From: Cyanobacteria bacterium SBLK
GTDB taxonomy: Bacteria > Cyanobacteriota > Cyanobacteriia > Cyanobacteriales > Spirulinaceae
NCBI GenBank assembly: GCA_017746715.1
Contig: JAGHZQ010000116.1
Span: 1 to 12,022, forward strand
Direction of reading: 5' to 3'
DNA length: 12,022 bases
Positions 7,931 to 10,603 of the stretch are shown here, piece by piece (position 1 is the stretch's first letter; each line of letters begins with the position of its first letter). The translations under genes and the position numbers were made by a program. The notes under the pieces are model-generated. The model did not search any database. It had not been told where the DNA came from and was given only the letters and a program-made list of their open reading frames with translations.

Positions 7931-10603
7931 TTAAAATTGAGTCTCTTCCTCGGTTTTAGGTTGGACGATCAAGCCGTTGGCTGCACTAAATAAATTGATG
8001 GGATTTTTACCATCGGTAATGAGCATGCTTTGAATGCCCAAACCTTCCAATAAACGCGCCTGCATTTCCGGCCCCGCTTGAGCGATCGCTCTGATGGTTT
8101 CCGGGCCGATTGCTTCGACTTTTTGACGATATTCTTCTGCCATAATTTCTGCCATCGTCCTAGCTTTTTCAACTTCTAATTCATTTAATGCTTTTTGATG
8201 TGCCAATTCGGCTTCTTGGCGCGATTGCCACTGGGTTAATTTTGCCTCGGCGCGAATGCGTGCGGCTTCGGCTTCTTGTTGTGCCAAATTTACCGCCAAT
8301 TGCCCCTCAATTTGTGCTGCTTCTGCCTTAGCTCGCGCCTGTGCCGTTGCCGTTCCAGAAGCCTCAATGACTGCATTTTCTGCCTGTAATTCTAGCAAAT
8401 TCTTCCGCTCTGTTTCCGCTAAACCGCGATCGACAATCACCTGACGTTCCAATCGCGCTTTTGCTTCTTGTTCGATGCGATCGGCATCTCGACGCGCTGC
8501 CGCTTCTTGGGCATCGGTGGTAATTTGAATCGCCAATTGTACGGATTTTTGCAGGCTTTTTAAAGTTTCTGCATCGATAGGTTCGACGGTTTGAATATCA
8601 ACGTTAGTAATCGTTAATTGGTTTGTTGTCATGCGAAACTCATCTCGAATACGTCCTTGTTCGTCTTCTCCAAAAACAGCCAGACGAATGATTCTCGCCG
8701 AATTGCGGTGAAATTCATCGAATTGAACCCCTGCGACTGCCCCCCGCACGCGAGAAGCCACCGCTTTACAAACTGCCCCGACAAAATCCGGTACTTGAAA
8801 CAATCGTGCCGCTGCTTGTTCGTCATGGCGATCGACATCAAAAAACCAGTTATAAGAAAGCTGCAATTGCAAGCGGGCGTGATCCGAAGTTTCCACGGAA
8901 AAAATATCCGTCATAAAATCCGGACCCAATAACAAAGCCAGAGATTTGATAACATTCGGATGCTTGGGTTTTCCTCCCGACAAACTCAACACCGTAAAGG
9001 CTTCATCGGGTCCTAACATTACCAGATCTGGACCGAATACCGTTCGTGCAGTCCTGTCTTTATAGTCGTGGATTTGTACCGCAGCATTTTGGGGAACGTG
9101 GAAAACAACCGCTCGAGTTTTGTCTCGATAAACTAACGGTTGTTTCTGTACTTCATCGCGGCTGTGATAGCGACCGCGATCGCTCACCGGATCCCTCTGT
9201 TGTCCCAATAATTCTTCTACGACAGGTGGCAATTCTTTTTCCCACAATTCCTCATAAGGACTCAACAAATATGCCTGAGGACCGCTCACGAGTTTCAATT
9301 CTCCGGTTTGAATATCTCGCACGTAAATGCCTTCATTTTTATCTAAAGGAATGGCTTTTCGGCGTTCTTTGACCTCCACTTCTACGGGGGGAATATAATC
9401 CCTCGGTCCGACAATCGACCATAAATCTCCGGGTTGACGAATGGTTTCGTCGGGTTCGATAAACTCTTCCCGCGCTCGCAATAATAGAGCCTCTTGTTCC
9501 CCCAATACGTAAACTTCTTCGATACCGCTTTCCAAAGATTCTCCCGGATGCAAGAAAAAAGAAGTGCGTCCTTGACGAATTTCTTGCAGTCCCAATTGCG
9601 GTTTTCCCTCCTCATCAATCGGATCCACCACAATGCACCATTCGCGATCGCTCAATGTGGTAATTTCCACTTCTCCCACCACTGCTTCATAGACATCGGG
9701 AATGTGAATTTCCGCATCGGCAAACGTCACCAACCATTCATCCCCTGCTTTGCGCTGTCGTCGGAAAATATCGTTAAAGGTGCGTTTCGCTTTTAAATGC
9801 AGTGCTTTTTGTTCTGTGAGGATATAGGCATCGATTAAGTCTTGTACCTCTTCATCGACTCCAGGTAAATAAGCCCCTTCTTCTCTCACTAACCATTCTT
9901 CTCCCGCTCGGCGAGGCGTACCGTCGCGATCGCGGCAATTTTGTCTCGCAACCAATCTCAGGGCTTGGTTGGGCTTAATCGTAATCGCTTTCACGGTTTC
10001 TATCACCTGCACTTCCACCCGAGGGATATAAGTACCGGGTCCTTCAAATAACCACTCATCCCCTGCTTGACGGGGGATATCCTCTTCCTCAATAGTTTCG
10101 CTAAAATCGCGAATGGCGCGCAATCTGAGGGCTTCATTTGTCTCCACCACCGAAAGCCGCGTCACGACACTCGCCATCTCTTCCCCTGGATACAAAGGGA
10201 AAGGATCTTGAGCAAAGCGCACCTCTTCATCCCCGTAGCGCAGGCGAATTTGTCCGTAGTCATCCGCGATCGGGCTATTTTCTTCATCCCGCAGGACGGG
10301 ATTGGCAACGATGCAATAGTGGCGGGGCGGTACGATAATCATGGGAGTCGGTTTGAGGATCAACCGTTCTGCATCCCCAAGGGTTAGGGTTTGCGGTCCA
10401 ACTTCCAAGCGGGTTACACCGGTATTGTTATCGAGAATGTGAACAAATTGTTGGGGTTTGAGGCGAATTACACCACTGGAAACGCTGGGGGCTTCATTTT
10501 TGGCGGAGGTGTCGGATTTCATGGCTTTTTCGGGAGTGAGGTGCATGCTTTTCGATTGTAACCACTTTGATTTTTTCTTGCTTGTAGAGAAGTTAATCTG
10601 CAT
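7931..10603 (-). CDS. mvp: Major vault protein (MVP) homologue, 890 aa
   Basis: Near full-length colinearity with animal MVP: VPPRHYCIVANPV; LRYGDEEVRFAQDPFPLYPGE; reiterated vault-repeat motifs AGDEWLFEGPGTYIPR / AGEEWLV..GAYLPGV / AGDEWLVTF...HIPDV / PGDLWSIVGPRDYIPPV; DLIDAYILTEQKALHLKA; a shoulder/SPFH-like block LGPDFMTD...LQLQLSYNWFF...VPDFVGAVCKAVASRVRGAVAGVQFDEFHRNSARIIR; an Ala/Glu-rich cap-helix coiled coil; and IGPETIRAIAQAGPEMQARLLEGLGIQSMLITDGKNPINLF. The length (890 aa) is close to human MVP (about 893 aa). At least four full GCGATCGC sites lie within the ORF. Confidence 0.85.
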   Translation of the reverse strand: MQINFSTSKKKSKWLQSKSMHLTPEKAMKSDTSAKNEAPSVSSGVIRLKPQQFVHILDNNTGVTRLEVGPQTLTLGDAERLILKPTPMIIVPPRHYCIVANPVLRDEENSPIADDYGQIRLRYGDEEVRFAQDPFPLYPGEEMASVVTRLSVVETNEALRLRAIRDFSETIEEEDIPRQAGDEWLFEGPGTYIPRVEVQVIETVKAITIKPNQALRLVARQNCRDRDGTPRRAGEEWLVREEGAYLPGVDEEVQDLIDAYILTEQKALHLKAKRTFNDIFRRQRKAGDEWLVTFADAEIHIPDVYEAVVGEVEITTLSDREWCIVVDPIDEEGKPQLGLQEIRQGRTSFFLHPGESLESGIEEVYVLGEQEALLLRAREEFIEPDETIRQPGDLWSIVGPRDYIPPVEVEVKERRKAIPLDKNEGIYVRDIQTGELKLVSGPQAYLLSPYEELWEKELPPVVEELLGQQRDPVSDRGRYHSRDEVQKQPLVYRDKTRAVVFHVPQNAAVQIHDYKDRTARTVFGPDLVMLGPDEAFTVLSLSGGKPKHPNVIKSLALLLGPDFMTDIFSVETSDHARLQLQLSYNWFFDVDRHDEQAAARLFQVPDFVGAVCKAVASRVRGAVAGVQFDEFHRNSARIIRLAVFGEDEQGRIRDEFRMTTNQLTITNVDIQTVEPIDAETLKSLQKSVQLAIQITTDAQEAAARRDADRIEQEAKARLERQVIVDRGLAETERKNLLELQAENAVIEASGTATAQARAKAEAAQIEGQLAVNLAQQEAEAARIRAEAKLTQWQSRQEAELAHQKALNELEVEKARTMAEIMAEEYRQKVEAIGPETIRAIAQAGPEMQARLLEGLGIQSMLITDGKNPINLFSAANGLIVQPKTEEETQF

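Follow-up and report, generated by a model that had tools for sequence, protein, structure and literature searches.

[quoted passage not shown] Mammalian MVP is built from nine repeat domains, a shoulder, a cap helix and a cap ring, and 78 MVP subunits make up a cage of two halves. Its N-termini sit at the waist of the particle and protrude into the lumen, and vaults tolerate engineered N-terminal additions of 12 to 31 residues (PMC7916137). Homologues of MVP in cyanobacteria were first described by Daly et al. in 2013 (PMC3762200) and have also been discussed in a 2019 bioRxiv preprint (10.1101/872010), and a literature search found no published structure of a cyanobacterial vault.

Here, we analyse an MVP locus in a stretch of DNA of 12,022 nucleotides, the whole of which is called the window. 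The initial annotation had described an MVP with a lysine-rich N-terminal extension of about 38 residues over animal MVP, which might serve as an inward-pointing tail for cargo or nucleic acid. A real basic tail of this kind would suggest that a bacterial vault has its own means of binding cargo, and would hint at what prokaryotic MVPs do. Our data point toward an ordinary cyanobacterial MVP of 863 aa that starts at Met28 (10522..10520) and has the termini typical of its family, a reading to which we assign a probability of roughly 0.9. Since the protein very probably starts at Met28 like its relatives, the 27 lysine-rich codons are almost certainly in-frame upstream DNA that would not be translated.

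RESULTS

Identity of the protein and gene model

The longest open reading frame (ORF) on the minus strand, 7931..10603(-), encodes 890 aa with the N-terminus MQINFSTSKKKSKWLQSKSMHLTPEKAMKSDTSAKNEAPSVSSGVIRLKPQQFVHILD and contains two in-frame internal ATGs, Met20 at 10546 and Met28 at 10522. A Pfam search returned Vault, Vault_2, Vault_3, Vault_4 and MVP_shoulder, all far over the curated cut-offs. The tandem repeats expected of an MVP are present: the Vault repeat PF01505 matched four stretches (E = 4e-63), and PF17794, PF17795 and PF17796 were also found over their curated cut-offs. The repeats are followed by the shoulder domain PF11978, in which residues 560-677 match positions 1-118 of the 118-position profile (E = 2e-51). 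Furthermore, an MVP chain of 893 aa from the PDB aligned with the ORF in a single collinear alignment (query 44-879 to chain 6-849, E = 9e-292). The cap-helix coiled coil and the cap ring, including the signature ...ITDG..PINLF..GL, are collinear with the solved MVP as well, and the protein is alignable end to end with mammalian MVP across the nine repeat domains, shoulder, cap helix and cap ring. These matches identify the predicted product of 7931..10603(-) as a genuine major vault protein. Thus, the identity assigned by the initial annotation was borne out by the ORF, Pfam and the PDB alignment, as were the start sequence of the ORF and the positions of its two internal methionines.

An exact-sequence look-up identified the window as a contig of the MAG "Cyanobacteria bacterium SBLK" and found the sequence from Met28 in the NCBI annotation, as an 863-aa "colicin uptake protein" (MBP0022171.1). 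The 890-aa version from Met1 was found only as a Logan gene call, and the 871-aa version from Met20 is absent from all public annotation. The real MVP gene is most likely the one counted from Met28 (Table 1). The divergent naming is general: cyanobacterial MVP homologues are called "colicin uptake protein" by NCBI and "major vault protein" by JGI. A scan of the 863-aa protein against NCBIfam matched zero curated families, and therefore, the NCBI name is not derived from an NCBIfam model.

Table 1. Coordinates of features at the MVP locus and in the DNA upstream of it
Feature	Position	Strand	Basis or remark
MVP coding sequence, 863 aa + stop (most likely gene model)	7931..10522	-	Pfam, PDB match, NCBI MBP0022171.1, starts of homologues
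C-terminal tail SAANGLIVQPKTEEETQF + stop, 18 aa after PINLF	7931..7987	-	120 homologues, 861-aa chains
Predicted N-terminal tail MKSDTSAKNEAPSVSSGV, 18 aa before IRLKPQQF	10469..10522	-	Polar, net charge 0
Met28 ATG, conserved family start codon	10520..10522	-	ATGAAATC[CT]GAC kept in four close sequences
In-frame 27-codon stretch MQINFSTSKKKSKWLQSKSMHLTPEKA	10523..10603	-	Lysine-rich "extension" of the initial annotation
Met20 ATG, window-specific	10544..10546	-	GCG in L001, L002 and L014
Conserved 42-nt block TAACTTCTCTACAAGCAAGAAAAAATCAAAGTGGTTACAATC	10554..10595	-	Ends in -10-like TACAAT, 10560..10555
Met1 ATG, window-specific	10601..10603	-	Upstream of the conserved block; flank unrelated in every relative
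Promoter-like GTGACA, 17 nt, TATAAT	10620..10648	-	Consensus scan, 11/12; window-specific

Start position in cyanobacterial homologues

A homology search with the MVP retrieved 2,745 proteins at E <= 1e-20, and the best 120 of these 2,745 were compared. They are full-length MVPs, 70-95% identical to the protein studied here, and the organism, where named, is nearly always a cyanobacterium. Pfam architecture, start position and both tails are shared with the window protein; the homologues differ from it in the upstream neighbour and in the strain-specific upstream ATGs, and in nothing of substance. The motif IRLKPQQ[FY] is invariant among the compared homologues. In 116 of the 120, the annotated start lies 14-24 residues before this motif, with a mode of 21, and the remaining four, which are longer gene calls, have an internal methionine at the same family position. 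A typical N-terminus of the family is MNTTERKTESKTEFPGSSSGV. Met28 lies 18 residues ahead of IRLKPQQF, inside the family range, and opens a polar, T/S/E-rich tail as found in the cyanobacterial MVP subfamily. The initial annotation had called for a comparison of N-termini among bacterial homologues; this comparison speaks for the Met28 position.

To guard against a possible bias common to the annotated gene calls, the DNA ahead of the family start was also read in the relatives. Six Laspinema-type loci (L004-L007, L011 and L012) have a stop codon two codons ahead of the family ATG. Two further loci, L001 and L014, have 13 and 56 open upstream codons, respectively, with zero in-frame ATG, GTG or TTG in either. 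With stops in the six Laspinema-type loci and start-less upstream frames in L001 and L014, the family methionine is the first possible start in eight loci.

The DNA upstream of Met28 in the closest relatives

The closest relatives aligned with the window were L014, whose MVP (P0001) is 95% identical, L001 (94%) and L002 (92-93%). From the Met28 ATG downstream, all four sequences align codon by codon. Upstream of it, the Met1 ATG is absent in all three relatives and sits just upstream of the point at which alignable DNA starts (10596). The codon for Trp14, TGG, is a TGA stop in L001. In both L001 and L002, the conserved block and the Met28 ATG are separated by a stretch with 1-2-nt indels. The extension exists as an ORF in the window only and is absent from the closest relatives. 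In L014, the upstream frame stays open and would encode a similar peptide, NFSTSKKKSKWLQS, but lacks a start codon; the resemblance stems from conservation of the DNA block. Given the base composition of the region, a run of 27 codons would stay open with a probability of about 0.13, and in 4 of 11 related loci, the frame ahead of the family start is open for 27 codons or more. The open extension is no more than what is expected by chance.

The substitution pattern separates the two regions clearly. In the coding sequence, differences at the first, second and third codon positions numbered 41/21/230 against L014, 38/17/252 against L001 and 53/31/276 against L002, and all indels were multiples of 3. 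Over the 73 nt that precede Met28, the corresponding counts by phase were 4/4/2, 2/2/4 and 11/8/6, with indels of 1-2 nt. Pooled over the three relatives, the third-position share was 758/959 (79%) in the coding sequence compared to 12/43 (28%) upstream (Fisher test, p = 4e-12 pooled and 3e-5 for the two closest relatives). The upstream stretch does not evolve as coding sequence.

Its composition differs, too. The 81-nt stretch has 39.5% GC and 42% A, compared to 48.4% GC and 29% A in the MVP gene, and the extension looks lysine-rich because its A-runs (AAGAAAAAATCAAAG) read as lysine codons. The codon-usage score of the 27 upstream codons was 0.054, which is below 95% of the in-frame 27-codon windows of MVP (mean 0.386, sd 0.189) but exceeds the off-frame means of -0.51 and -0.53 and is, therefore, intermediate. 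Being low for a coding window yet above the off-frame means, this score is weak evidence.

Promoter-like elements and initiation region

The 42-nt block in the upstream DNA differs from L014 at 1 of 42 nt and from L001 at 2 of 42, compared to differences of 27-29% at third codon positions (p = 4e-5 and 8e-5, respectively). Its terminal TACAATC is also kept in L002, whose other upstream DNA has diverged. This degree of conservation suggests that the block is probably a promoter or operator of the MVP gene. The TACAAT at 10560..10555 may be its -10 element, in which case transcription would start near 10548 and leave a leader of about 26 nt to Met28; a -35 match accompanying TACAAT was not found. 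A start just downstream of TACAAT would leave Met1 off the mRNA. The second promoter-like site, GTGACA-17-TATAAT, lies upstream of Met1 and is not conserved in the relatives. If this sigma-70-like match were used, Met1 could be on the transcript. The consensus promoter scan gave 2 matches in the region versus a shuffled expectation of 1.0 ± 0.8, which is not above expectation.

No convincing Shine-Dalgarno-like site was found before Met1, Met20 or Met28, and ribosome-binding evidence separates the candidates poorly because all three ATGs are without such a sequence. The initiation region (-20..+20) of Met28 is the least structured of the three, with a dG of 0.0 compared to -4.6 kcal/mol for Met1. 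The Laspinema-type loci have GGAGGA or GAGGA 10-12 nt before the family ATG. A search for repeats and palindromes around the start region of the window returned nothing relevant, and when the window was scanned against Rfam, neither vault RNA, a structured leader nor any other family scored at threshold.

The two termini

Read from Met28, the N-terminus is (M)KSDTSAKNEAPSVSSGVIR, and the tail MKSDTSAKNEAPSVSSGV shares all but two positions with the N-termini of its nearest homologues, P0001 and P0002. The 86 distinct tails of the family are composed of T (15%), S (15%), E (12%), G (8.5%) and K (7.5%), among other residues, and have net charges of -3 to +1 with a mean of -0.64; that of the window is 0. 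Judged by this composition, the conserved family tail is no basic arm for nucleic acid binding. Shell proteins with such arms have a translated and conserved basic N-terminal segment, and none was found here. The basic N-terminal arms of viral capsids would be a fitting comparison if Met1 were used, with a lysine-rich, probably disordered tail facing the shell interior; unlike these arms, the conserved tail of cyanobacterial MVPs is neutral to acidic. The lysine-rich cargo or nucleic acid tail suggested by the initial annotation is, therefore, not supported by the charge of the family tail, and its codons are not conserved as coding sequence even among MVPs of 92-95% identity.

In the alignment with the PDB chain, residue 44 of the ORF pairs with residue 6, which gives 38 extra N-terminal residues if the protein is read from Met1. 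To this extent, the extension of about 38 aa was correctly counted, but the real one is far shorter: read from Met28, 16 residues precede the aligned region, compared to 5 in the 893-aa chain, and the predicted extension relative to mammalian MVP shrinks to about 11 residues. Because MVP N-termini protrude into the lumen at the waist, a position that the initial annotation had named and that is established (PMC7916137), the conserved polar tail would reach into the vault interior there.

At the other end, PINLF is followed by 9-26 residues in all of the 120 best homologues (median 20) and by 18 in the window protein, not by the 20 after NPINLF that had been noted initially. Past the aligned end, the 861-aa MVP chains of the PDB have 12 residues compared to 11 in the window protein. 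We take the 893-aa chains (e.g. 11dr) to be human and the 861-aa chains (4v60, 4hl8 and 7pkz) to be rat MVP. The roughly 30 extra C-terminal residues of human MVP form a "knob" that is absent in rat (PMC12280208). The knob is missing here as well, and the C-terminal tail is about as long as that of the rat protein. To be without a "metazoan tail" is, therefore, not a distinguishing feature, since the extra residues are present in human and missing in rat MVP; the initial annotation had generalised too far from the human protein.

DISCUSSION

We propose that the A-rich stretch 10523..10603 is regulatory or leader DNA, that in the window strain it is by coincidence free of stops in the MVP frame, and that two strain-specific ATGs, Met1 and Met20, arose in it. 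Transcription would begin just past the TACAAT block, so that Met1 would lie off the mRNA, and translation would proceed from Met28. On the comparative evidence, the lysine-rich "extension" is then a product of choosing the longest ORF.

The picture would be a different one if Met1 (10603) were used, in the window strain only and maybe beside Met28. The protein would then carry a 27-aa tail with a net charge of +5. Lining the waist in 78 copies, this tail could bind RNA, DNA or acidic cargo, and the vault would be a naturally occurring equivalent of those engineered with N-terminal fusions. Such a start would be a recent gain, brought in with a new promoter by the replacement of the upstream flank. 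Indeed, the frame is open from 10603 with the ATG as its first codon, one automatic gene call (Logan) chose this start, and the window-specific GTGACA-17-TATAAT would put the transcription start about 8-10 nt upstream of it. The length of the tail is also within the range of additions, 12-31 residues, that vaults tolerate (PMC7916137). However, the ATG is missing in all three of the closest relatives, which argues against selection for a basic tail, and the region behind it lacks coding-like evolution. Furthermore, the number of promoter matches does not rise above the shuffled expectation, structure around the initiation site is more stable than at Met28, and the NCBI annotation uses Met28. 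We regard the use of Met1 as very improbable.

Met20 (10546) had been offered by the initial annotation, along with Met28, as the true start in case the extension is not translated. Of these two fallbacks, Met28 is the one backed by our data. A start at Met20 would give a protein of 871 aa, that is, the family tail plus the 8 residues MHLTPEKA. The ATG is in frame and would lie very near the 5' end of a TACAAT-driven transcript, and near-leaderless initiation is conceivable. Against this stand the GCG codon at this position in L001, L002 and L014, the one-nucleotide indels between Met20 and Met28 in L001 and L002, and the lack of the 871-aa sequence from every public annotation. A start at Met20 seems even less probable to us than one at Met1.

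With a start at Met28, the locus adds a known protein to a known group: the cyanobacterial MVP has been described before, and the lysine-rich extension would be no real feature of it. As an artefact of the longest ORF, the extension teaches nothing new on how vaults work. The practical gain is a corrected gene model with the start at 10522 and a product of 863 aa. Beyond this, the conserved polar tail at the N-terminus, about 18-21 residues long, and the short C-terminus that cyanobacterial MVPs have in common are useful to know when these proteins are expressed.

Unlike the eukaryotic vault ribonucleoprotein, the locus has no vault RNA match in the window, and no eukaryotic vault partner (vault RNA, TROVE/PARP4-type) was found in the window or among the scanned neighbours of the relatives. 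Nor did the neighbours scanned in L001, L003 and L004 include a partner gene common to the MVP loci. These results speak neither for nor against the suggestion of the initial annotation that a tail stands in for TEP1 or vault RNA. The window MVP is flanked by a truncated NPP1-like ORF, an ADH remnant and pst genes, and the MVPs of the relatives have His kinases, ADH and DUF1361 as neighbours. The upstream neighbour, the NPP1-like ORF in the window, is a hybrid histidine kinase in L001 and a NACHT NTPase in L014; both L001 and L003 have genes for histidine kinases or response regulators upstream of MVP.

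Conserved and possibly rearranged DNA around the MVP gene

The coordinates of the features that surround the gene for the major vault protein (MVP), in the window and in two related loci, are listed in the table. A 42-nt non-coding block 5′ of MVP is conserved far above synonymous sites in the comparison of the three closest genomes, and is a candidate promoter or operator.

Features around MVP in the window and in the related loci L001 and L003
Feature	Position	Strand	Basis or remark
ABC ATPase gene	4318..5205		adjoins the permease gene
ABC transporter permease, 643 aa	5227..7158	−	two stretches matching inner-membrane component family (PF00528)
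Zinc alcohol dehydrogenase remnant	7368..7793	+	alignment to intact 330-aa gene of L001, same position
42-nt non-coding block, 5′ of MVP	10554..10595	−	conservation among three closest genomes; −10-like TACAAT at end
NPP1-like ORF	10657..11142	+	match to NPP1/NLP necrosis-inducing protein family (PF05630); divergent relative to MVP
PD-(D/E)XK nuclease family transposase-like gene	11635..12022	+	PF12784, E = 6e-33
Histidine-kinase or response-regulator hybrid (HisKA, HATPase_c, Response_reg)	L001 826..3915; L003 2620..3873	MVP strand

The NPP1-like ORF has a hydrophobic N-terminus, its family match is limited to profile positions 5-78 of 197, and it is missing at the corresponding position in the close relatives L001 and L014. 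It resembles a toxin-like gene that has been truncated or has decayed. Together with the transposase-like gene, which is incomplete and continues past the contig end, this truncated ORF is suggestive of rearranged or mobile DNA on the upstream side of MVP. In L001 and L003, the immediate same-strand upstream neighbor of MVP is the histidine-kinase or response-regulator hybrid, and this proximity could be a coincidence or a regulatory link.

On the other side of MVP, the alcohol dehydrogenase remnant aligns with residues 10-42 and 196-292 of the L001 gene; the ADH_N domain is deleted, and therefore, the remnant is probably a pseudogene. The ABC transporter genes are read as a fused pstC/pstA (permease) and pstB (ATPase), and L001 has a 643-aa ORF at the position corresponding to the permease gene.

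Some MVP homologues carry labels from outside the cyanobacteria. The contig L010, assigned to a Chloroflexaceae MAG (Chloroflexaceae bacterium UBA1466), encodes an MVP that is 67% identical to the window protein, and one homologue, P0067, is labelled Actinomycetota. Either erroneous binning or horizontal transfer beyond the cyanobacteria could account for these assignments.
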